The notes: a model not told the origin generated them from the letters alone. A stretch of 64,000 bases of DNA from Pseudogymnoascus verrucosus (GCA_001662655.1 KV460258.1); one strand, 5' to 3'; counted from the stretch's first letter, positions 11,496 to 58,089 are shown. Numbers and translations: made by a program.

Positions 11496-11970
11496 CTTGT
11501 GCTTTCTGGAGGTAAAACTGCTTTGCAGATTGGACAGCAGGCTGTTTTGGTTTGTCGTTAGTTTCTAGTTGTTTGATACGGCAGAAACCAATTTGACGTT
11601 GTTTGTTTGAAAGAAAACAAGCCCTATATTTATATGTAAGTGGGGTGACGTCGTCGGACTTTATCTCTCTAACGCCGGGAACGGGAACGCGTCCGTGACT
11701 GCCTGCGAAGCGAAAGCCACGCCTCGTCGTCGATGCCTTCGTCAATTTATTTTATCCCGCCCACCAGTTAACTAAGACTATTACCATTTATAGTTGAGTT
11801 TATAAAAATTCGGCCATTAGAATTTTGAAAGCAGTGCGATCTCTGCCACACATCTGAGGTTTAATCTCCATATTTATTTTATATAATATTTATCTCGATT
11901 GATTTGTAGGGTATAGTTTTTATTTCCTTCACTACCAAGGGTAGCACCCAGCAACACGTAAAGCGCACAC

Positions 11971-13748
11971 TTACGCCTTGCGCCGAGTGACATGACATGG
12001 CCAGTCGTACGGCACTGCCGTGAAATGGGATTTAAATGACCACTCGTGCTTTGGGTCTACCTGTCGAATATCAAAATCTCGCACCAAAGTCGCCGTGACC
12101 TTTGAGACTTCCATGCGGGCCAAGTTTTGGCCAGGGCATGAGTTGTAGCCAGCACCGAACTACGAGAATAGAGAGGTTAGGATTCGCCAGCTGCTGACAC
12201 CGGTTCGGAGTACTCACTTGTACCATATACTTCTCCATATCCTTTGCTCTCGGCTCGAGCCATCTCTGGGGGTTAAACGTATTTGCGTCGGCACCAAACA
12301 TCTCAGTGCTCCTGTGGATGACCCATGGATTGACACTCAGATGAGTCTAACAAATTGTTAGCATTGGACCCTGTTGAGGAGCATATCTCCAGGAAGACCC
12401 ACCCCCTGAGAAAAGACGCGGTCGCCAATCGTCAACCCCTCCTCTGGAACTACCCGTGCGAGGCCATGTGCCACGGCCGGATGGAATCTAAATGTCTCTT
12501 TGACCTGAGAAATGCTAAGTCAGCGGAGTAAACAATATATAAGCTCAGTGAGGCCTTACACAGGCTTGAAGGAATGGTAGTTCTCGCGCCTCCGCGTAGC
12601 TGACGACCCTGGATAGCTTCCCCTTCTCGCTGGCCTTGTCTATCTCTGCCCGCACCCTTGCGAGGTCCTCTGGACTCCTTAACAAATAATACCAGAATGC
12701 TTGGAGAGTTGCGCTGACAGTATCAGCTCCAGCGCCAACAGTTGCCGAAGCCACAGCTTGGATTTCCGTCTCTCCGAAACGTTCTGGGTGCGCTGCCTGA
12801 GCCTGCATCCAATGCTCCATCATATCCGTCCTTGCCTCTGTATTCTTCTTCCTGGAAGCGACGGCGCGTGAAACAGTATCAAAGATATGCTGTGATGGGG
12901 TTAGACCGAGCTTTCCCATCCACGGGTTCCCAAGAGTTGCGTCATGCACCGTCAGGAAGAAGCCGGCAATGGCAACGTAAAGGGTCAGGGCTCTGCTGTT
13001 TGCAATTGAACCGCCAATGTCGCTTGCAGTCTCGAGGAAGCCGAAGGCACGCGAGAAAGTGACCTCGCCTATGACATCGAAAGCAAGGTAGTTGAACCAC
13101 CTGTCAAAATCAACGGGTTGACCGGCCTCTGCAAGTTCATCCAGGCGCTTCTCGAGAAGTTCGATTGCATCGTTGATTTGAGGCTCGGATTTGATGATGC
13201 TTGAGAGTGTGTACCCGGCGGCAACATTCTTCGCTCGTTCAACGCGGCGTTTGGGGTTGACTTCTGACATTGGGGTCTGGAAACGGTGGTCTGGCAGCGC
13301 CATAACCTTGTACCAATCGATCTACAAGTTCACATACGTCAGAAGATGGGTCTAGGTGCTGCTTCTGAGCAACTGTACTTACTTTGGCGAGGGGGGTTAA
13401 GAGGATAGCACGTATGGCATCGGGATGGCTGACGCTGACTTCTTCATGGCTGATACGGACAAAATGTCCTATGACGGGTCAAATTAGGACAGAGCATCAA
13501 TGCCATGTTCACGAAACCTCACCATGCTTTTCATGCAGCGCAATCACTGTTACCTCGATATGCCCTGCTATGACCTCCCATATCTCCCACAAGGTCGAGA
13601 ATGAGGCCAAAAAAGGTCCTGGAATATCACTGATAGCGGAGAAGTATCGTCGGCGAACAGCAACGCTCACGACGTACGCAGCAAATAAAAAGACTGCATA
13701 TGTACCCACCCCCAACTCCAAGGCGAATGGCCCAAGAATTTGAACCAT
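11971..13748 (-). CDS. Cytochrome P450 (pisatin-demethylase-like group)
   Basis: N-terminal TM then IPGP, AFDVIGEVTFSRAFGFL, I-helix GAGADTVS, K-helix KETFRFHP, FNPQRWL, heme motif FGAGYNSCPGQNLA. At least five introns. Confidence 0.92.
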
Positions 13749-15274
13749 TGAAGCTGAGAACAAACGGGATTCTCTCAGTTATTCTCGGTTATTGGAGCAG
13801 AACGAAGAGACCAAAAGAAAGAGATGTACGAGCTATTTTGGGGGTTCCAACGGGAGCCTATCCTGGTTTTCTTGAGCAACGACGCATGTGAGCCAAGCAA
13901 AGCGTTACGTACTGAACTATACCACTATACCAAAGTATGATCGCAGACTGGTGAAGCACCCGTTTCGATATGCAGCGTTTGTGTAAAGACAGGCGTTGTG
14001 GGGATACTAACTGCCGTCATAAAGGTAGTTCCCGTAGGAAGTAGCTCAGGGCGTATCCAATGACCACAATGCTATTGGCTGCTGTAGAGTATGGCAGCCA
14101 ACACTTCCTCATCAACCTCCCAAATCCACGTTGCATCCAACTGTGGGGCATCCCACAGTTGGACCCGGGGCACTCGACGCTTGCCTTCTTACCCGGCGGG
14201 ATTCCGGGTCGTGCCATAGCTCCATAGCTAGGGTCTTCTTGGTGCATTCTCGGCTCCCTATTCGTGCTCCTCGAATACAAAAAACGCACCAACCCCAATA
14301 ATCAATACTCTTTCTCCACAGCTGCTCCACCACTGATCCTTCAGTGACACTTGCTCCTTTTATTACCGTTTCACTTTGTATTTGTCGTTGGCCATTCGTC
14401 TCCATAAAGGCGGCTCAGGGCACTCTCGTCGCGATCACCACGCCAGATGCCACAATAGGCATCTTTCTGTTCAAGTCTCTCTATGCATTCGTACTTCGTG
14501 CACGACAAGTGGTAGAAAATTAATCTTTGTCCCCACACGCTGGCGTGCGGGGACAAAGATCAATAGCCGGTCTGGGTAGATGGCTATTGCCCGACCTCCC
14601 GCAATTCGCACGTCCTGCCGAAGTGCCTGCGAACACACTTGTTTTTGACAGATTGATGCCGGCAGGTGGAGTTCCGCATCCGCGGGAAGGCTGAACGAGG
14701 CACCCCCATGCCTGTTCCCCTTTTCCTTGGACATTTTTCGTCGGGGACAGGGAGAGAGCAACAGCTGTAGTTGCATTCTTATCACATTCTGTCGTGGGCG
14801 CTCCACGAAGGGGAGGACTTTCCCGATGCACTGCCATGCTTGTAGCCATTCATGCCTTGAGATACGGGGAAAAAGCAATGTTACAATTGCTGATTGGGGA
14901 GTATGCCGAAGGACGATACCCTGTACCCACTTGGGGAATTGAAAAAGAGAGTGCTGCTCTGATACTGTCTGTATATTGCCAGGCCCACTCTTGTGCGTGA
15001 GGACTACCCTACCGGTGTTTAGTCTCCTTATACCATGTCTCCATTTCCCAGACAATCCTCAGTTCTTCTTGTGCGGTCTCGATCCTGGGGATCTTCAGTC
15101 GACGAGGCGCCCCAGACAAGTATGTGTGGACTCGCTGATCATCAGAATTTGATTGTTTTCGGTTCACGGGGGCCTTGATGTTGGAGTTTTAACATATAGC
15201 CCTCGACCTGCCGAACTCTTCGAGAGTCAACGCCGGTCGTCATTGTCGTCCGTGGATTAGGAGAACTGAAAATT

Positions 15275-16617
15275 ATGGTCGAAATCAAATCCCGTGGCCA
15301 AATCGCCCCGCTCGTCGTCTGTGCCGCATTTATTGTTATCACGGTAGCTTCTGTTGTCCTGCGAGTTGCTGGGAGGCGGATTAAGAATATTGCCCTCCAG
15401 GCGGAGGACTATTTGATTTTTGTTGCCTTGGTAATATCAACGACTTTAACGACACGATCTACTAGTTAACATCTTCTTAGGTCTTTGTCCTTGGGCTAAT
15501 AACGTGCGATATTATCGGTAAGTCGCTGCATTGATGTCTTGACGGAATGATCTAACGATTCTTGAAGGGGTTACCCATGGAGGTGTCGGCCGCCATGCTG
15601 CAGATATTATCGCCGAAGATGGTCCCCAGGTTCTGGTGGCATTCCTCAAGGTTTGTATTATATGCCTGTTATACCATCAGTCTATCAACTTCATCGCAAC
15701 CGGGCACCTCTGGACTTGACTGACGATAAAAAATTCACAGGACCTAGTGGCCATTCAGATGCTCTGGGCCACCAGTCTCATGTTCATCAAACTTTCTATT
15801 CTCTGTTTCTACATACGAATCTTTAACGTTAAACCATTCATCATGGCATCGATAGCGGTTGCAGTTCTCGTCGTCCTTTGGGCTCTCAGCGTCATTTTAT
15901 GCGGCTTCTTATTGTGCCGGCCCTTCGAATACAACTGGGATCAATCCATCGAGGGATCTTGCGGAGACCAGATCAAATCCTACATTATTACGGGAGCTCT
16001 TAACATTGTCACCGATGCTCTTGTACTCGGGCTTCCGATGCCCATGATCTGGAGGCTGAAGATAAACTTGCGGAGCAAGATTGCTCTGACAGGCATCTTC
16101 ACAATTGGATTTTTGTAGGCATACCCCATCCCAACCCTCCGGCTAAGCATCTAATTCCATGGCCGCTGACATCCCATCTCGCATTAGCATCTTTATCATC
16201 AGTATCATCCGCCTGAAATCCCTCATCACGGTCTCCTACGAAGATATTACCTATTCGGTTCCTGATGCGCTTATCTGGAGCATGCTCGAGCCTTCCCTCG
16301 GCCTCACCCTTGCCTCGATCCCCATCATGCGACCCGTCTTCTCCAAGATCTTCCCAGACAATACCCAGCAAGGAAACACTGGCCTCAGCAACACTAACCC
16401 GACCAGTAACAGCGGTTTGGCGCCGAAGAACTTCCAGCGCATTGATGAATACCCCTTGGATCCGATGCGACCGGACTTTTCCGAGAACCGCACATATGTC
16501 ACAGAGGGACGGGGCCCGTTTTATGACATGGAGAGTCAGAAGAGCTCACAGAGCGAGGCGGAGCTCGTTACGTCGAACATAAAGGTCAAGCAGGAGTGGG
16601 ATGTGAGGCGAACTTGA
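15275..16617 (+). CDS. PTH11-like integral membrane protein (fungal rhodopsin-domain, no CFEM)
   Basis: LRV..RR....LQAEDYLIFVAL, GGVGRH, FIKLSILCFYIRIF, LCRPFEYNWD...GSC, NIVTDALVLGLPMPMIWRL, WSMLEPSLGLTLASIP. Four introns. Confidence 0.88.
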
Positions 16618-43265: not shown

Positions 43266-43728
43266 AGAGCCTATCTCGTAGTGGCGTTTGGGCTGATGAA
43301 TTCAGTGGAGTATGGCGCTGCTTTATGTCACCAGCCGTGTATCGCACCTGGTGAAGTTCTTCATCGCGGAGGTAGTAAGATGGCTCTAACTGGCCACTGG
43401 TAAAAGTGGGTCTGGTGCTGGATAATCCCTGCACGTACAGCATTAACAGACCTGTCAGCACAACCAACGAGTAGAGAGTTGGATGAGGATGGGCCACGTC
43501 ACCTTGGGAGACCAGTCGTCGTCTTTCATATCACACTTTCGTTGCACGTCAAAATCAAAAAGATTTTAATATTGGGCGAGGAGTCACCTAATAACTTGAA
43601 GTCTGACTCTTCAGACCTACGTCTTCGTATTCAAACTGCTTTGTTCATCTCCTCCTACCAGGTCGAAGAAGATTCAGGCTACCATCCAAAGAAATAATTC
43701 CACACAAGAAAAATAACCTCATTCGAGC

Positions 43729-45582
43729 ATGGACGACCAACTTCCACCGCCACCGTATTCTGTTCACAACCCTCACGATACGTCAAGCCAAATTTTAGCG
43801 GACTCAGTAGGCTTGGTTCCGCAAGAAAGCAATGACTTGAGCGCATCATCGATAGGAGCAAATTCCCATTTTGCTTCAAGGCCTCCAGATCAGACACCTC
43901 CAAGTAGGATCATTTCCCATCGAATAGTACTCGAACCTGACTCAAGCCGGGACGAGATTGAACTCCCCCCACTGTTCTCGGAGCGCGGCGTTGATGAACA
44001 GGACTGGTTCACTTTTTGCAACCATCTCTTTCCAGACCATGTCTTAGCTGGGAATAATCAGAAAGGGGGCACATCATATGAGTTAGATGAGAAACAGCCA
44101 CTTTATCCATCCAGCAAAAACGCCAACGGCCTTGGTAATCTAGGATTATCAAATTCTACAACAGGGCCAAAGGACGGAGACTCTGAGAAAGATTACGTGC
44201 GCCGGTCAAACATTCACAAGGTAGTCAAAGAGTGGAATTCTGGATTCTTCGAACCCCGAGGTCTGTTGGTGATTGCAAAAACTTCCGTCCCGTTATCATC
44301 CAAGCTTGGAGATCTCAATTCGCGTTCTATATTTGGAGGAACGATTATTGCCAAAGCTGCTGCCAGAGGAGATTTTAAAGTGGTCGAGGGCCTTCTCCTG
44401 CAAGGTGCTGACCCTGACTCGTCCGCCTTGTATGACGCGGCAGCCAACAGACATCCTTCGGTAGTAAATCTACTGATCCAACATGGCGCAAAGGTAGATA
44501 CGAAACCTTCAACCACTCACCTGGTCGCCTCGCAGGGCAATGCGCGGACACTTGCAACTCTGCTGAAGTATGGTGCCAACCCCAACCACAAGAACTGGAC
44601 TGGAAATTCTCCTCTATTTGACGCTGCAGGCCGTGGCGACATTCCAGTATTAAAGCTTCTTCTTGCCTATGGGGCAAATCCAAATTATGCCAATACAGGA
44701 GGGCATTCCGCTTTATACTATGCCATCCAGAGGCGCGATACTACTGTGATCCAACTGCTCCTCGACTATGAGGCGGATCCGAACTACCGACCCTGGACTG
44801 GGCAGCCATGTGTCCATCTTGCTGCAGCACAAGGCGACATGAATACCGTACAGGCCCTAATTTCCAAAGGTGCCGACATTAATGCGACCCCTACCATGGG
44901 CGAAACTGCCCTCGGCTCAGCTATCTATCGTGATAATCTTGAAATGGTACACCTCTTACTGGATAACGGTGCCGATGTGAACATAAAGCCTCTAACTGGA
45001 CAGTCGCCACTGTTTCTCGTGGCTAGTAGAGGAGAAGTGGTGTTGCTGCGGCTACTCTTAGAAAAGGGTGCGAACCTGGATGAGTCGCCGCCTGGGTTTC
45101 CTAGTGCGTTATATATGGCGATACACCGGGAGGATCTTGAAACTGCCAAGGTCCTACTTGAATTTGGAGCCAACGCAAGCACTGGTAACTCACTCAATGT
45201 TGCCGTCGATCATAGTAATGTGAATGCAGTAAAACTGCTTCTGGATCACGGTGCGGACCCGAATTCAAAACCTCCCGGAGGGCAGACGCCTTTGTACAGT
45301 TCTGCTGCCAAAGGAGATACGGTGTCGATGGAGCTGCTCTTGAAGAAAGGTGCCAAGGTCGATTGGACGCCGGCTGGGTTTCCGACCGCGCTCTACATGG
45401 CTGTGGCCAGGGAAGATCCAAAAGTGGCCAGGATTTTATTGAGTTACGGAGCTGACGTAAATGCAACGGTGGCGGGATTCGGTACTGTTTTAGATCGTGT
45501 GATGAAGAGTGGAAGTGAAGAAATCAGGCAGTTATTATCACTGGATAAGAGTAACTACTATCCGTTTGATAAGGAGGGCTGA
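43729..45582 (+). CDS. Ankyrin-repeat protein (about 12 repeats) with N-terminal PPPY motif
   Basis: Repeated G.SPL..AA..G....V.LLL..GAD.N units from residue ~205; N-terminus MDDQLPPPPYS and DWFTFCNHL...EWNSGFFEPRGL. Confidence 0.9.
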   Translation: MDDQLPPPPYSVHNPHDTSSQILADSVGLVPQESNDLSASSIGANSHFASRPPDQTPPSRIISHRIVLEPDSSRDEIELPPLFSERGVDEQDWFTFCNHLFPDHVLAGNNQKGGTSYELDEKQPLYPSSKNANGLGNLGLSNSTTGPKDGDSEKDYVRRSNIHKVVKEWNSGFFEPRGLLVIAKTSVPLSSKLGDLNSRSIFGGTIIAKAAARGDFKVVEGLLLQGADPDSSALYDAAANRHPSVVNLLIQHGAKVDTKPSTTHLVASQGNARTLATLLKYGANPNHKNWTGNSPLFDAAGRGDIPVLKLLLAYGANPNYANTGGHSALYYAIQRRDTTVIQLLLDYEADPNYRPWTGQPCVHLAAAQGDMNTVQALISKGADINATPTMGETALGSAIYRDNLEMVHLLLDNGADVNIKPLTGQSPLFLVASRGEVVLLRLLLEKGANLDESPPGFPSALYMAIHREDLETAKVLLEFGANASTGNSLNVAVDHSNVNAVKLLLDHGADPNSKPPGGQTPLYSSAAKGDTVSMELLLKKGAKVDWTPAGFPTALYMAVAREDPKVARILLSYGADVNATVAGFGTVLDRVMKSGSEEIRQLLSLDKSNYYPFDKEG

Positions 45583-53678: not shown

Positions 53679-54455
53679 TTGATCGAGGCGGTTTGGGCGT
53701 GTTCGTTGTGCGGTGGCTGGCGCAGACACTGTTGGGCTTCCGAGCCGTTCTTCAGATCCCGTAGTGCCAAACCTCTTGACAATTTAGCAGTAGATGCAGT
53801 GCAGGTATCATTTACCTTTACGCAATGCCCGCATTGCTGTGAGGTGCTGGAAGATGACGACTGCCTGTTGACCTCAGACATGATCATAAACGAAGAGTTT
53901 TACAAGCACCATCTACAAGTCGTATCGAGCGCCATTCAGAGTGCCAGAAGCGTAGGCGTTGCCATTCATACCGTTAGCTTGTTGCACTTTGAGCTTCCAT
54001 ACTACCATTCATGGGAACAACCTAATCTACGCCCACTATCCGAATCTCTAAGACAGCTGCTGGGGAACATCAAGGTCCTACGCCTGCATGGGGTTGACGA
54101 CAGTGTACTGGAGCTTCTGTCTCGCTGCGCATTTGATCTGCATCAGCTTGACATGTGTGGAGTGGTGGCTCCTGAAAAGGTCATCAAGGATTTTTTCGAG
54201 ACCAACAAGAAATCCATTCGCTCTATTGGCTTTCACGATGTTGGAATCCTTGGGTTGAACCGCTTGGATAGCAATACTCCACTGTCAGCAAGTATGCTTT
54301 GCTGTATGCTGGGTGTGCCACAGTCGACGCTATGCCGAGCGGCTGATTGCGGCTGTCTTCTCTGGCGGAAGGAGGGATGGCGGCTGGTGGTTGGCGACGG
54401 CAGCTCGCAGCTTTCCACTGCAACTTCTGCTAAGAGAAAATATGATGAGCTGTAA
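53679..54455 (+). pseudogene. Hypothetical protein, probably a 5'-truncated or decayed gene with leucine-rich C-terminus
   Basis: 258-codon open frame lacking an ATG start (IKVLRLHG, LHQLDMCG, IRSIGFHDV periodicity); the same frame upstream is riddled with stops. Confidence 0.4.
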
Positions 54456-55188
54456 CAAGCTAGACTTGGAAGCGTCACTTGCTAAGCTGGCGTCCTCTTG
54501 CCGAGTTGTTTCGAACTGTGGATAACAGGGGTAATCGGTCTATCCATATATGAGGCTAACCGCTAAAATCAACCGTTAGGGTTTAAGGTTTCCACCTCGG
54601 TTACTTTAATTGTATGTTATTACAAGGTTCTTTGGCTACTTGTGCCTTTTCTTGATTGGACATCGGCTTCTCAGTTGCACACTTGTTAGGGATCATTAGG
54701 ATCGGCAAGTTTAGGTGAACTGAACCTCTTCGTTCCTATACATAACATCCATCTTAGGGATTTTCGACTCCATAAGATTCTCTCTACAAGAGACTAGCTC
54801 TTGGGATGTATACGTCATAGTATGGATATTGCCGCCTTAATCGCTCATTTGACAACACCCGACCCTTTAAATGAAGTGACAACTCTTTTGAATTTGGAAC
54901 CTTTAAAGGTAACAAATTATCGTGTGTAAGTGCTTAGAAGATCTTGAAGTAATAAAAGCGCCTTATAGGAACCAACCACTAATTGCGATGATAGTTGTTC
55001 AAGATATAGATTACCCAACGTCAGTGAAAGGCCATTGCGAGCGTAAGTCCAACTGTATAGGGATAGGTTCAAAGCTGATTTCAGAAGTATCCCACTGGAA
55101 TATAGAGAGTTATATAGGGAGCATTGGGCTTGATCCCATCGGAAACACAGAGCGCCAATCTCCAAGACAATACTCCTCAGAACATACT

Positions 55189-55551
55189 ATGTTAGCCAAC
55201 GACGCAGCCCAGCAGGAGCGAATGCAACAGACAGATAAAGATGCAGAACGGGCTGTATCTGGGCAAACGGACGAAGCTCAACGCCTTATTTTTGAAGATT
55301 TGAACACCGGTGAAGGCGCCCACCTTGTCATTGTCTCAACTGCGACGCCCGGAAATCCGATTACAGCTAGGAATATCACCACTAGGAATCGAACTTCCAA
55401 GTGGCTTGGTCAGATGTCTGACGAGTCCCTACAGACACTCTCACATAATAAAGTGGATGCTCTGTCAACCTCTACGCATTTTGCTACTAACAAGGTGCTA
55501 GAGAAACTGAATGTAGGGTTCTTGCAACATGGACCACGGCGTATACTCTGA
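55189..55551 (+). CDS. Short ORF with one HET-s/HRAM-like two-repeat motif; possibly a remnant of a HeLo-like effector gene
   Basis: RLIFEDLNTGEGAHLVIVST...ITARNITTRNRTSKWLGQMSDESLQ; the frame is open from 54922 but the first aligned ATG is 55189. Confidence 0.45.
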   Translation: MLANDAAQQERMQQTDKDAERAVSGQTDEAQRLIFEDLNTGEGAHLVIVSTATPGNPITARNITTRNRTSKWLGQMSDESLQTLSHNKVDALSTSTHFATNKVLEKLNVGFLQHGPRRIL

Positions 55552-55870
55552 TGTGAAGTTGGGAAGTGCTTTCTCCATCTTGACATGATACTATGGATCA
55601 CTCTTAGGTGCATGGACATAGGGAGCCTACTGCAAGAGATTAGAGGTTACCAAAGTTGAGATTGTGAGCATACGTCATGATATGGGTAGTGCCGCATGTG
55701 ACAACATCTGGTAGAAGTTTGTCCTTTAATGAAATGAACAAATCTTGACCTTAGAAGCTTTGAAGGTGACTAATGTACTGTATGTAAGACCGTAAGATCG
55801 TCAGGCTTGATCTCCTCAGAAACATAAACTAAATAACTTCTAACATAATACTTCCCCGAACAGAGCAAGC

Positions 55871-56347
55871 ATGTCAGCTGACAACGCAACCCAGCAGCAG
55901 CGAATGCGGAGAGACGATGCTCTCGTATCTAGTCAAATAGCCCAAATTCAGCGTGTTGTCTTTGAAGACGTAAACACGAAAGAGGCTGTTCACCTAGTCA
56001 CTGCCTCGATGCGGGGAGATCGGGCCTCGGCTAAGAGAGTCAGCGTTTGGGCTCGAACTGTACAGTGGCTTGGTTATATATTTGATCAGTCCCAACAAAT
56101 GCCTAATCAAGCGTGCCAAAAAGCATTAATGGAGAAACAAGGCGCAAAGGTTGAAAACTATAGAGGAGTTAGATTTGAAAATGTCGAAATCGGAAAAGGT
56201 TGTGCGATTGCTATGGTTTCAACTAAAGGGGAAGAAGTTTATGGGAAAGATATCAAAGTCGGGGACTACACATCCTTTAACAGTGGACAAATGTCAGATG
56301 AATCTGTGCAAAGCCTTCCTAGGGCTCATAGCACAATCCTCTACTGA
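55871..56347 (+). CDS. Short ORF (158 aa) with two HET-s/HRAM-like two-repeat motifs; paralog of the preceding ORF
   Basis: VVFEDVNTKEAVHLVTAS..D.ASAKRVSVWARTVQWLGYIFDQS and VRFENVEIGKGCAIAMVST..EEVYGKDIKVGDYTSFNSGQMSDESVQ. Confidence 0.5.
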   Translation: MSADNATQQQRMRRDDALVSSQIAQIQRVVFEDVNTKEAVHLVTASMRGDRASAKRVSVWARTVQWLGYIFDQSQQMPNQACQKALMEKQGAKVENYRGVRFENVEIGKGCAIAMVSTKGEEVYGKDIKVGDYTSFNSGQMSDESVQSLPRAHSTILY

Positions 56348-56719
56348 AGCCAGAGTAGCAAGGACACGGCGTCTGGCAGACATGGAGTAGGGGGTATTCT
56401 TAGGGACGAAAGAGAATGAAGAATCATTTGCGTCACTTTCCTGAATGCGTGGACGAATATGGACCATAATGGGAAAATTAGATTAAAAACATTTAACGAT
56501 GCCACTTTTTGCCTCTTTCCTACTTAATTAATTCCTCTATTTACATAATCAGGGCAAACCATACTGCACACTTTGATTCCATCTAGCTGCAGAACTGCAA
56601 GACAGTTCCGTGAAATTCCTCTGCGTGAATTTGAAAATGAATCCGATGTTCGAGCCGGACATCACAGATTCGGCAATTGGTAGACTCGTTAAATCCAAGT
56701 CTTCTAACATGCTTTCTTC

Positions 56720-57595
56720 AAGACGACAATCGTAAAGTATCTCGAACTGTACAACAAATCATAGGCAGAGCTCCACGGGCAAATGAAGAAGCGGAACGAT
56801 TATAGTGAACGGACAATTATAACGACATGGCAAATCTCGTTTGATGAGATAAAGATTAGAGATGAAGGAGCCGCAAAACTGTTGCGATTGTAGGGCTACA
56901 TTGACAATTAAGAGCTTTGGTTTCAGCTGTTACTATGGCCGAGATGGAAGAACGCTGCTCCGGGCTAGCTCTAGCAAATCATAGCTACTGAGATCAGCTT
57001 CTTGGCAACCGTCGACACTCTTTTGGGTTACTCACTTATTGAACGGAATGACAACAGCGAGACATATTCAATGCACGCAGTGGTCCATGATTGGATCCAA
57101 GCATCCATCGACATGAGGAAAGATGAAGGCCTTTTACAGACAGCAATAACTACTATCGGCCTTGCAGTTCCAGAACAAATTGCAAGAGATTCTGCAACCG
57201 TACAACGCCGGATTTTACCGCATGTTATCCAATTACTACAATACTAGAGCTATGTCACCGATGTTAACGATGATTTGGATACGGTTGCATATCTAGATAG
57301 TCTTAAAATGCTAGGAAACCTATGCTCGGATCAGGGAAAGCTGGCTGAGGCGGAGGAGATGTACCAGCGGGCGCTAAAAGGAAAGGAGAAGGCACTTGGA
57401 GCTGAGCACACATCAACACTCCGCACAGTCAACAACTTAGGCAACCTCTACGCAGATCAGGGAAAGCTAGCTGAGGCGGAGGAGATGTACCAGCGGGCGC
57501 TAAAAGGAAACGAGAAAGCACGTGGACCAGCTATCCATTTACTCACAGCAGGTGATGGAGATAGATGGGAGAGGGATTTTAGTGCACGACAGTGA
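56720..57595 (+). pseudogene. Fungal NLR (NB-ARC/TPR type) pseudogene, N-terminally truncated
   Basis: Single frame: KYLELY...TIITTWQISFDEI...AAKLLRL*GYIDN*ELWFQLL...LLGYSLI...YSMHAVVHDW...RILPH, then TPRs LGNLYADQGKLAEAEEMYQRALKGKEKALGAEHTSTL. Six in-frame stops. Confidence 0.9.
57310..57530 (+). repeat. Two near-identical 126-bp TPR-coding repeats
   Basis: gatcagggaaagct(g/a)gctgaggcggaggagatgtaccagcgggcgctaaaaggaaa starts at 57329 and 57455 (period 126). Confidence 0.9.
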
Positions 57596-57746
57596 AGACC
57601 TAGTAAAGAATCAGGCGGCAGAAAAGTAGATGGCCGAATTGGAGTCCTTCTTGAGGCGGGAAATTAGGTATGTATTCCGTTGGTATTACTATTCTACCTA
57701 TTCTGACTCTCGATGCTGCAAGGCCCACCGTGAGATCTGACAACTT

Positions 57747-58089
57747 CTAACAGTGGTCACTCTTGTCAGTTCCAGCATCAATACACCCACCAGCACAGCG
57801 TTTCTGCCAATCAATAACACCCTGATTGCCTCCTACACAATAGAAGAGATCATCCTTGCCATTGTCAATTTCTTGCTGGCCAGCATCGTGGATAGCTTGG
57901 TCGATTTGGGCCTGGTATTTCCCTAGAAACGTCTTGGTTAGTTTTGGTTTTAGGAAAGAAGTGTGGGAGTACGTTCTTACCTTTGCTAACGAGAGTGCTT
58001 CCACAGTAGAAAAGACCAGGCTTGCAGTTGTCCGCAATTGCGCCAGTGGCGAAAACAGCGAGAGCTGCAGCAAGAAGTGTAAATTGCAT
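57747..58089 (-). CDS. Small secreted cysteine-rich protein (94 aa, 6 Cys), effector/antimicrobial-like
   Basis: Spliced (intron 57923-57980): MQFTLLAAALAVFATGAIA-DNCKPGLFYCGSTLVSKGKYQAQIDQAIHDAGQQEIDNGKDDLFYCVGGNQGVIDWQKRCAGGCIDAGTDKSDHC*. Confidence 0.85.

Follow-up and report, generated by a model that had tools for sequence, protein, structure and literature searches.

The 64,000-nucleotide stretch of Pseudogymnoascus verrucosus DNA analyzed here (GCA_001662655.1, KV460258.1; referred to below as the window) contains, at positions 55,189 to 57,595, two short open reading frames (ORFs) on the same strand, which are followed by the remains of a gene of the NOD-like receptor (NLR) type. Between them, the two ORFs carry three copies of a two-part module ending in GQMSD or a variant of this motif. 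Judged from homology, both ORFs derive from the 3' end of a HeLo-like gene, where the last ~110 residues of its product are encoded, and have no HeLo-like domain themselves. The interpretation favored here, by a modest margin over an even chance, is that the module is a HET-s-like stacking element of HeLo-like proteins, that the ORFs of the window are derivatives of these proteins that lack the HeLo-like domain, and that the adjacent NLR is most likely unrelated to them. The module itself probably forms a stacked beta-solenoid, and would polymerize head to tail in the manner of HET-s.

The origin of the ORFs is revealed by the wider family to which the module belongs. A profile built from nine module sequences (A2), searched against 1.84 billion cluster representatives, recovered 319 representatives at E ≤ 1e-3, with 47 at E ≤ 1e-10 and five at E ≤ 1e-30. 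Many of these matches are 250–424 amino acids (aa) long and have the module at their C-terminal end, and 29 of the 30 long matches scanned with Pfam have the PF17111 domain at the N-terminus, which bears out the mention, in the initial annotation of this locus, of a similar VST...LGQMSD tail on proteins with a HeLo-like N-domain. PF17111, currently named PigL_N and formerly "Helo_like_N, fungal N-terminal domain of STAND proteins" (signal transduction ATPases with numerous domains), is a HeLo-like, MLKL-related, membrane-targeting domain. The full-length proteins (360–424 aa) consist of PF17111 (residues 1–209), ~100 residues of helix (coiled coil), the module, and a tail, while the family entries of ~270 aa are second-exon ORFs. 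A scan of metagenome contigs with a narrower alignment (A4) provided 48 loci encoding family members (numbered L001 onward), in which the first-exon ORFs matching PF17111 span profile positions 1 (or 2) to 138. The named members come from Histoplasma, Aspergillus steynii, Arthrobotrys, Microsporum, Recurvomyces, Halenospora, and Stagonosporopsis, and the family thus extends over several classes of the Pezizomycotina. No Pfam model matched the C-terminal module itself in the searches of the window ORFs and of the long and short family members, and the ESM Atlas returned only sub-threshold leads to PF17111 clusters (scores 0.80–0.84).

When nine full-length proteins were compared with the window by tblastn, only their last ~60–100 residues aligned, at the three module copies, and across the whole 64 kb no match to the HeLo-like N-domain improved on E 0.01. 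Weak N-domain matches near 25.1–25.5 kb (E 0.01–0.9) were discarded, given that there is no convincing ORF at this point. Similarly, PF17111 had no match in ORF1 or ORF2 at E ≤ 10 in Pfam, in agreement with the earlier statement that no intact HeLo domain is visible. As the alignments are confined to the C-termini of the full-length proteins, the window ORFs are not the N-termini of an NLR, and the idea that they represent the severed N-terminus of the downstream gene must be abandoned, whereas the other options proposed at the time, a decayed effector gene or an effector-less protein, belong to the right family of explanations. The helix ahead of the module in the full-length proteins repeats the EE..S..QCL.IC element that closes PF17111, and worn copies of this element are kept in both ORF1 (QQERMQQ) and ORF2 (NQACQKA).

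Further copies of the module were observed in some of the family members. In the full-length members at L009, L010, L011, L002, L003, L012, and L005, a second, partial module (hidden Markov model, HMM, positions 1–33, E 1e-4 to 2e-7) lies ~100 residues upstream of the main copy, after the first EE..S..QCL.IC helix, and the proteins P0025, P0112, and P0114 likewise have two matched stretches. At L001 (8258–13028), L004 (8281–12992), and L029, which is a near-copy of L001, three or four paralogous genes or gene fragments with PF17111 and the module are found within ~5 kb, on both strands, so local expansion recurs in the family, as in the tandem ORFs of the window.

Within the window, ORF1 occupies positions 55189–55551 (+) and encodes 120 aa in the standard code, counted from the ATG at 55189 of a longer frame that is open from 54988. 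Its predicted product is a motif-only protein, in which a single two-rung module is preceded by what remains of an N-terminal helix and followed by a tail. The second frame, ORF2 (55871–56347, +; 158 aa), contains two modules. Counting each module from the arginine three residues ahead of its phenylalanine to the final aspartate, module 1 spans 55282–55422 (+), and consists of rung 1 (RLIFEDLNTGEGAHLVIVST), a four-residue loop that includes a two-residue insertion, and rung 2 (NPITARNITTRNRTSKWLGQMSD). Module 2 (55952–56086, +) is degenerate, with VTASM replacing IVST and GYIFD replacing GQMSD, the latter ending having already been read correctly in the initial annotation. Module 3 (56162–56299, +), in which RGVRFENVEIGKGCAIAMVST is joined to EEVYGKDIKVGDYTSFNSGQMSD by the loop KG, belongs to a divergent subfamily. 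The tail of ORF1 (55510–55548, +; NVGFLQHGPRRIL) fits the family tail pattern F..R[YH]G.G..L of the alignments and consensus.

The two ORFs and their three motif copies, as first described, are both real. The core HMM has exactly three matches in a six-frame translation of the window, with domain E-values of 1e-21 to 1e-22 (2.5e-22, 1.4e-21, and 1.7e-22 for modules 1, 2, and 3, respectively), values which are inflated by the inclusion of close relatives of the window ORFs in the model. Independently of this model, full-length homologues recover all three copies by tblastn, P0083, from Histoplasma, for instance, with E 9.6e-12 for module 1, and 2e-7 and 2.6e-4 for the others. The positions originally given for the phenylalanine codons that open the copies (55291, 55961, and 56174) are correct, while the ends had taken in two further codons in each case, the terminal aspartates ending at 55422, 56086, and 56299. 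The four pseudo-repeats described in ORF2 are two two-rung modules. The region upstream of ORF1 (54810–55225, +) is repeated ahead of ORF2 (55670–55907) as the short repeat families D2, D3, and D5, the paired copies at 54810/55670, 55127/55804, and 55189/55871 being 84–86% identical. The locus is interpreted as a tandem duplication because the DNA upstream of both ORFs is repeated as well.

The close relatives of the two ORFs are found primarily in Pseudogymnoascus. ORF1 aligns end to end with P0018 (119 aa) and with P0016, and residues 200–299 of P0048 and 291–377 of P0145 align with 55192–55476 by tblastn. In the case of ORF2, 13 relatives have about the same length and come for the most part from strains of Pseudogymnoascus, and the two-module forms among them (P0001–P0007) are 60–81% identical to it. 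In the alignments, the small homologues fall into three types, that is, the ORF1-like type, with a single module and a tail ending in G.GR[IT]L, the P0011-like type, of 115 aa and one module, and the P0009-like type, with a different N-terminus, one divergent module, and the tail G.GR.LG..AS.GA.A.RPTW. Standalone small homologues are annotated in P. destructans, where P0011/P0169 is VC83_02561, and in other strains. ORF2 joins a 5' part of the P0011 type, with module 2, to a 3' part of the P0009 type, with module 3. Residues 39–139 of P0009 align with 56105–56401 across the TGA of ORF2 (57% identity, E 7.8e-34), and since this alignment passes through the stop, the ORF2 tail (GRHGVGGIL) sits behind it and has been lost from the ORF; the in-frame TGA is at 56345–56347, and the conserved tail follows in the same frame (SQSSKDTASGRHGVGGIL; stop and tail together 56345–56419, +). 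On these comparisons, ORF1 looks like an intact, single-module small protein of a type conserved across Pseudogymnoascus, and ORF2 looks like a tandem-duplicated, fused two-module version in decay.

The decay of ORF2 raises the question of whether the locus as a whole is, irrespective of the fold of the module, simply a graveyard, with ORF1 and ORF2 being non-functional remnants of a HeLo-like gene that has lost its 5' half, open by chance beside another dead gene, of the immune type. This possibility is doubtful, albeit substantial, for ORF2, and perhaps for ORF1 too, as merely decaying fragments. Apart from the tail behind the stop, the degenerate module 2 is partly lost in P0004 and P0007, and the frame of P0005 stops early, the deletions and truncations among P0001–P0007 affecting either module 2 or module 3. 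The downstream NLR is shattered, and the guanine–cytosine (GC) content is 0.45 across 54001–58000, an interval that includes both the motif ORFs and the NLR relic, compared with about 0.47–0.54 in most other 2-kb bins of the window, which fits decaying or non-coding DNA. Motif-only copies with rung 1 and rung 2 in different frames are also present in the unrelated contigs L045 (9980–10227) and L046 (1067–1418), which are long and lack any neighboring PF17111 ORF of 170 aa or more; the copies in question are either frameshifted relics or contain an intron within the module. To this may be added a public gene model, V499_03466 (P0014, 466 aa; Pseudogymnoascus sp. VKM F-103), which is the sole longer relative of ORF2 and is 100% identical over it. 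Predicted introns in this model connect ORF1 and ORF2 with an upstream ORF (53880–54455) that belongs to no Pfam family, and the model looks like a mis-fusion of three unrelated ORFs, an artefact of annotation. At least one residue differs between the V499_03466 product and the window (GNIERQ versus GNTERQ). Against the graveyard, however, stand the full-length alignment of ORF1 with P0016 and P0018, the recurrence across several species of Pseudogymnoascus, the annotated 115-aa gene of P. destructans among them, of the single-module type with both its motif and its tail conserved, and the distribution of the conservation among the small proteins, which is concentrated at the rung positions, while the linkers vary.

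The module has ~46 residues and is composed of two 23-residue pseudo-repeats, rung 1 and rung 2. The consensus of 129 non-redundant sequences is RTNVFEDVsaaDDaHQVIVST-iG-DLISAKRITaGaRStQWLGQMSD, in which G42, Q43, M44, D46, and T21 are near-invariant; a short helix (SLQQLS) comes after the module, and an aromatic/glycine tail (F..RYG.G) follows ~30 residues further on. In the same 129 sequences, the BLOSUM self-similarity of the module peaks at an offset of 23 residues (−0.175), with all the other offsets between 10 and 35 at −0.48 or lower. The mean charge product, calculated for 124 non-redundant sequences, is also lowest at offset 23 (−2.47 per sequence), followed by −1.57 for the best antiparallel register and −1.33 for the next best parallel offset. 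The complementary pairs responsible are R1/D1, E6/K6, D7/R7, and D13/R13, while the divergent Pseudogymnoascus module has instead a K/D pair at position 12.

The covariation between columns provides a further line of evidence. In the analysis of mutual information with average product correction (MI-APC) in 160 sequences, nine of the 30 strongest pairs lie at an offset of exactly 23, out of 27 such pairs among the 1081 possible (hypergeometric p 9e-9), although p-values of this type overstate the independence of related sequences and are not true probabilities. The comparison of one offset with another inside a single alignment is, by contrast, a fair control for relatedness. The coupled pairs include 16–39, 7–30, 13–36, 17–40, 6–29, and 18–41, the signal persists both in 136 canonical-only sequences and in 89 sequences at 70% non-redundancy, and no antiparallel register stands out in the MI-APC covariation. 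Rung 1 and rung 2 are thus coupled at offset 23, and the constancy of this offset, rather than of a sum of positions, implies the parallel, in-register stacking of the two rungs, the same argument from covariation and charge having been used for the amyloid motifs related to HET-s (HRAMs) by Daskalov et al. (PMC4518210). The initial annotation had proposed beta-solenoid rungs for the second halves of the motif only; the rungs are supported by the covariation, the charges, and the multimer model described below, and both halves of the module are rungs.

The models of the monomer are compatible with this arrangement. In the AlphaFold2 (AF2) model of P0145 (424 aa, 85-row alignment), which has a mean predicted local distance difference test (pLDDT) score of 72.7, the module region (10-residue block means of 67–89) contains strands at 325–329, 338–343, 348–352, and 361–366, single bridge residues at 332 and 355, and a helix at 369–377, and the elements all recur at +23. 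The AF2 model of ORF2 (mean pLDDT 60.1) gives module 3 the strands 100–107, 111–117, 123–130, and 135–140, with pLDDT 71–79, while the second rung of module 2 is modelled as a low-confidence helix. When four copies of residues 318–382 of P0145 were modelled together, in the approach suggested at the outset for stacked motif copies (ESMFold2, without an alignment), the median-run score was 0.62, in comparison with 0.01 for the best of three controls, a score that is the confidence of the model itself and was calibrated on two copies, not four; among the proteins of this calibration, 21 of the 30 solved as one-chain pairs attained the mark, and none of the 23 solved as single chains did. The partner pLDDT was 81, and the three runs shared at least 95% of the contacts. 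The inter-chain contacts listed with the lowest error (349–326, 364–341, 351–328, 350–327, 354–331, 363–340, 366–343, and 358–335) stack rung 2 of one chain onto rung 1 of the chain that follows, at offset 23, and thus describe an open-ended polymer of the HET-s/HELLF type. The four-copy model supports head-to-tail stacking in this predicted form.

A number of observations weigh in the opposite direction. In addition to the relatedness of the sequences behind the covariation and the limits of the calibration, the multimer score may reflect a memory of solved HET-s-type solenoid fibrils, and the monomer models, taken alone, do not separate a parallel two-layer solenoid from an antiparallel four-strand meander. 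The module 2 and the tail of ORF2 are visibly decaying. Profile similarity to HET-s, which had been recommended as a check, was not found, with no match of PF11558 to the window ORFs at E ≤ 10, no PF11558 among the matches listed (25 of 54 families) for 84 short members, and, when profiles A2 and A3 were searched against the Protein Data Bank (PDB) sequences, no HET-s or HELLF chain at E ≤ 10. Where HRAMs have glycine, at position 19, rung 1 of the 129 sequences has V (110), I (10), A (5), L (3), and M (1), and G in none. The module is, moreover, far better conserved across the fungal classes than the usual NLR-paired amyloid motifs, a pattern that also fits a folded domain. The best A2 matches in the PDB were mammalian prion proteins (E 0.04–0.6), in which helix 2–helix 3 was aligned (TVTTTTKGENFTETDIK versus AIVSTKGEEVYGKDIK); these matches are not significant, and were judged to be due to chance, being limited to one family and not reproduced with the broad-family profile A3.

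Given this, the module might instead be a small folded beta domain, an antiparallel four-strand meander with a helix, that regulates or dimerizes HeLo-like proteins without any amyloid polymerization, with the window ORFs being leftover fragments. The near-invariance of five positions across Pezizomycotina classes would be expected of such a domain, the AF2 monomer is a confident, compact unit of four strands and a helix, and neither NLR pairing nor any likeness to the known amyloid motif profiles was found. This alternative is nevertheless unlikely, since covariation and charge complementarity keep a constant offset, as in parallel stacking, and not the constant sum of an antiparallel sheet, the 8-residue "loops" of the P0145 model hold the paired bridge residues 332 and 355, and the chains of the multimer model form an open-ended stack, in which rung 2 of one chain lies on rung 1 of its neighbor. 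Nor was any solved fold matched. The structural alignment of the ORF2 model reached a best Z of 4.4 (root-mean-square deviation 4.6 Å, 93 residues aligned), with none at Z ≥ 5 and no HET-s among the 50 matches listed, and Foldseek found nothing in the PDB at E ≤ 0.001 for the P0145 model, with long-helix proteins only, the 46-residue module being a small query in both cases.

The downstream gene is the basis of the remaining alternative. The TPR-type (tetratricopeptide repeat) NLR pseudogene described in the initial annotation is present as a relic at 56765–57595 (+), and the first piece recognized by eye starts ~420 bp past the stop of ORF2. What is left of the gene is a winged-helix/ARC remnant plus two TPR units, spread over three reading frames and interrupted by stops. 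The fragment at 57248–57592 matches TPR_10 (1.2e-19) and TPR_12 (2.3e-17), and that at 56975–57244 aligns with the second half of DUF7779, the winged-helix domain of NB-ARC-type proteins, at 1.3e-5, which narrowly misses the curated cut-off. No match to the NB-ARC P-loop part was found at E ≤ 1 for the fragments at 56549–56890, and the relic, which lacks both this part and an N-terminus, is thus truncated at both ends, and is not an intact member of the NB-ARC/TPR group. Elsewhere in the window, the N-terminal part of an open frame of 621 aa (43717–45582, +) is rich in serine and proline, and gives way to an extended series of ankyrin-type repeats (by eye), with no NACHT or NB-ARC part seen there by eye.

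The relationship between the module and NLRs was also assessed in the metagenome loci. The 17 non-redundant loci that reach at least 6 kb provided 136 flanking ORFs with a length of 170 aa or more, while L010, L014, L029, L036/L040, and L027 were omitted as near-duplicate or uninformative. Only one of the 17 loci, L005, has an NLR neighbor, and the other 16 lie among housekeeping genes, such as isocitrate lyase, ATG17, CDC45, and a Dis3-like gene. The L005 NLR (11773–16185, −) is a 1471-aa ORF with NPHP3_N (a NACHT-type P-loop), the GPIID_WHD winged helix, and WD40 repeats, convergent with the family gene, and its N-terminus of ~190 residues had no match to the rung-level and core HMMs. Across the 48 loci, with all six-frame ORFs from 25 aa upward included, the same HMMs picked out nothing beyond the family genes and paralogues of these. 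No long protein (817–2330 aa) was found with any of the three window modules at E ≤ 1, a weak negative, since a single rung scores little. The words GQMSD, VFEDV, IVSTIGD, and IVSTLGD are absent from supplementary files 1–8 and 11 of PMC9815663, which include the alignments of 127 clusters of NLR N-termini, the FASTA/HMM files and structure outputs of the same supplement, which could hold the motif, being outside this comparison.

It is, then, highly improbable that the locus is an NLR/amyloid-signalling cluster, with the motif ORFs as the effector, adaptor, or severed N-terminus once templated by the adjacent NB-ARC/TPR NLR, as first suggested, for while the ORFs lie on the same strand as the relic and close to it, an effector gene paired with an NLR gene is typical of HRAM, PP, and sigma systems (PMC4518210 and PMC9815663), and L005 offers one NLR beside a family gene, the ORFs are homologous to the C-termini of HeLo-like proteins, no motif is demonstrable on a relic without its N-terminus and P-loop part, and the loci, the flanking ORFs, the long proteins, and the alignments of NLR N-termini contain no motif-carrying NLR. 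The adjacency of the NLR and the motif ORFs is probably coincidental and the relic unrelated, and the expected linkage to NLRs did not hold. For the window, the practical outcome is a corrected annotation, in which the V499_03466 fusion is undone and the "NLR locus" becomes a truncated relic.

Returning to the HET-s-like stacking module of HeLo-like proteins, its polymerization would switch on the HeLo-like domain of the full-length proteins, by analogy with HET-S and HELLF, which is a real possibility, if a little short of an even one. In a more speculative vein, motif-only, "prion-domain-only" proteins, such as ORF1, could seed or cap the polymerization of their full-length paralogues, and free-standing proteins of this type would offer a natural system for the study of seeding versus capping. 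Up to now, fungal amyloid signalling has comprised a few motif families (HRAM, PP, sigma, and PUASM), each defined through its pairing with NLRs, while the module family described here is much larger and far more conserved, with clear in-register covariation and no NLR partner, and is apparently independent of NLRs. One possibility is that the templated beta-solenoid switching of MLKL-like executioners is wider than has been thought, and not restricted to NLR control, and another is that the fold has a non-amyloid use. It may be suggested, very tentatively, that the GQMSD module represents a large, apparently undescribed class of HET-s-like solenoid, with a 23-residue period, near loop-less and without a paired NLR, which spawns prion-domain-only proteins that seed or poison the polymer, in which case ORF1 and the 115-aa gene of P. 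destructans could be natural analogues of HET-s versus HET-S. No description of the module was found in the literature searched ("LGQMSD", together with papers on PF17111 judged by title and abstract), which is not proof that it is unpublished. The systematic screens retained either proteins of less than 310 aa (PMC4518210) or C-termini of 10–150 aa for which a pairing with NLR N-termini was possible (PMC9815663), and most of the family members would have been dropped by these filters of length and NLR pairing.

The comparison with the known systems begins with the short C-terminal motifs PP, sigma, and PUASM, which, like the module, are found on fungal cell-death or enzymatic effectors and have been proposed to act by templated stacking (PMC9815663), but which have other patterns (FxGxGxQxxGxGxF in PUASM) and are defined by a pairing with NLR N-termini that was not found for the module. 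This pairing, the defining property of the HRAM, PP, sigma, and PUASM motifs, is thus not shared by it. The HRAMs, as described by Daskalov et al. (2015; PMC4518210), have 21-residue repeats with G at position 19, hydrophobic residues at 5, 8, 10, 16, and 18, and a preference for R/K at 15, the repeats being joined by a loop of 6–18 residues, with a 2-residue loop in one of 155 sequences. The two pseudo-repeats of the module are likewise in register, in both charge and covariance, with a period of 23, not 21. In the HRAM numbering, rung 1 has N3, F5, V8, and I18, and rung 2 has A5, I/V8, T/A/V10, L18, G19, and Q20, so that both rungs conform at positions 5, 8, 10, and 18 (F/A, V/I, A-T-V, and I/L), and G19 is present in rung 2 in 126 of the 129 sequences. 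Position 16 is Q in both rungs (92 and 90 of 129), position 15 is H or T, not R/K, and the connection between the rungs is of only two residues ([ILV]G) in the family, or four in module 1 of the window, shorter than the typical HRAM loop. The position C-terminal to a HeLo, HeLo-like, or SesA domain, also typical of HRAMs, is seen in the wider family (29 of 30), and not in the window ORFs.

Among these systems is HET-S/HET-s of Podospora anserina (HRAM1; prion-forming domain 218–289, PF11558; NLR NWD2), with which the module shares the two pseudo-repeats and, in its predicted form, the parallel beta-solenoid stacking. Both have complementary charges at equivalent positions, which are 1, 6, 7, and 13 in the module, and hydrophobic residues at 5, 8, 10, and 18, and rung 2 of the module also has G19 followed by a polar residue. 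The aromatic/glycine tail after the repeats parallels the C-terminal loop of HET-s (PMC4518210), and in the full-length relatives, the module is C-terminal to a HeLo-type cell-death domain, as in HET-S. The module differs from HET-s in its 23-residue period and two-residue connection, as opposed to the 21-residue repeats and 6–18-residue loop, and in the V19 of rung 1, the lack of an R/K preference at 15, and the absence of a PF11558 or PDB profile match. Unlike HET-S, the family has an N-domain of the HeLo-like type (PF17111), with ~100 residues of coiled coil before the motif, and no cognate NLR was found, while the window ORFs have no N-domain at all, retaining only the degraded EE..S..QCL.IC element of the PF17111 proteins to which their relatives belong.

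A parallel in architecture is HELLF/FNT1 of P. anserina (HRAM5), in which, as in the family described here, a two-repeat module lies C-terminal to a HeLo-like N-domain. The Q16 of both rungs recalls that of HRAM5 (PMC4518210), although the HRAM5 signatures QxFG (positions 1–4) and QG(QI) (16–18) quoted in bioRxiv 10.1101/2020.07.06.188508 are missing from the module. HELLF has 277 aa and adjoins the NLR FNT1, whereas the GQMSD proteins have 360–424 aa and no NLR link in 16 of the 17 loci. The module is not assigned to the HRAMs, because it lacks a PF11558 or PDB profile match, the G19 of rung 1, a loop of the usual length, and the HRAM5 signatures. In HELLF, the HET-s fold persists at 17% identity (bioRxiv 10.1101/2020.07.06.188508), and the GQMSD module appears to work like an HRAM, while being a distinct variant.

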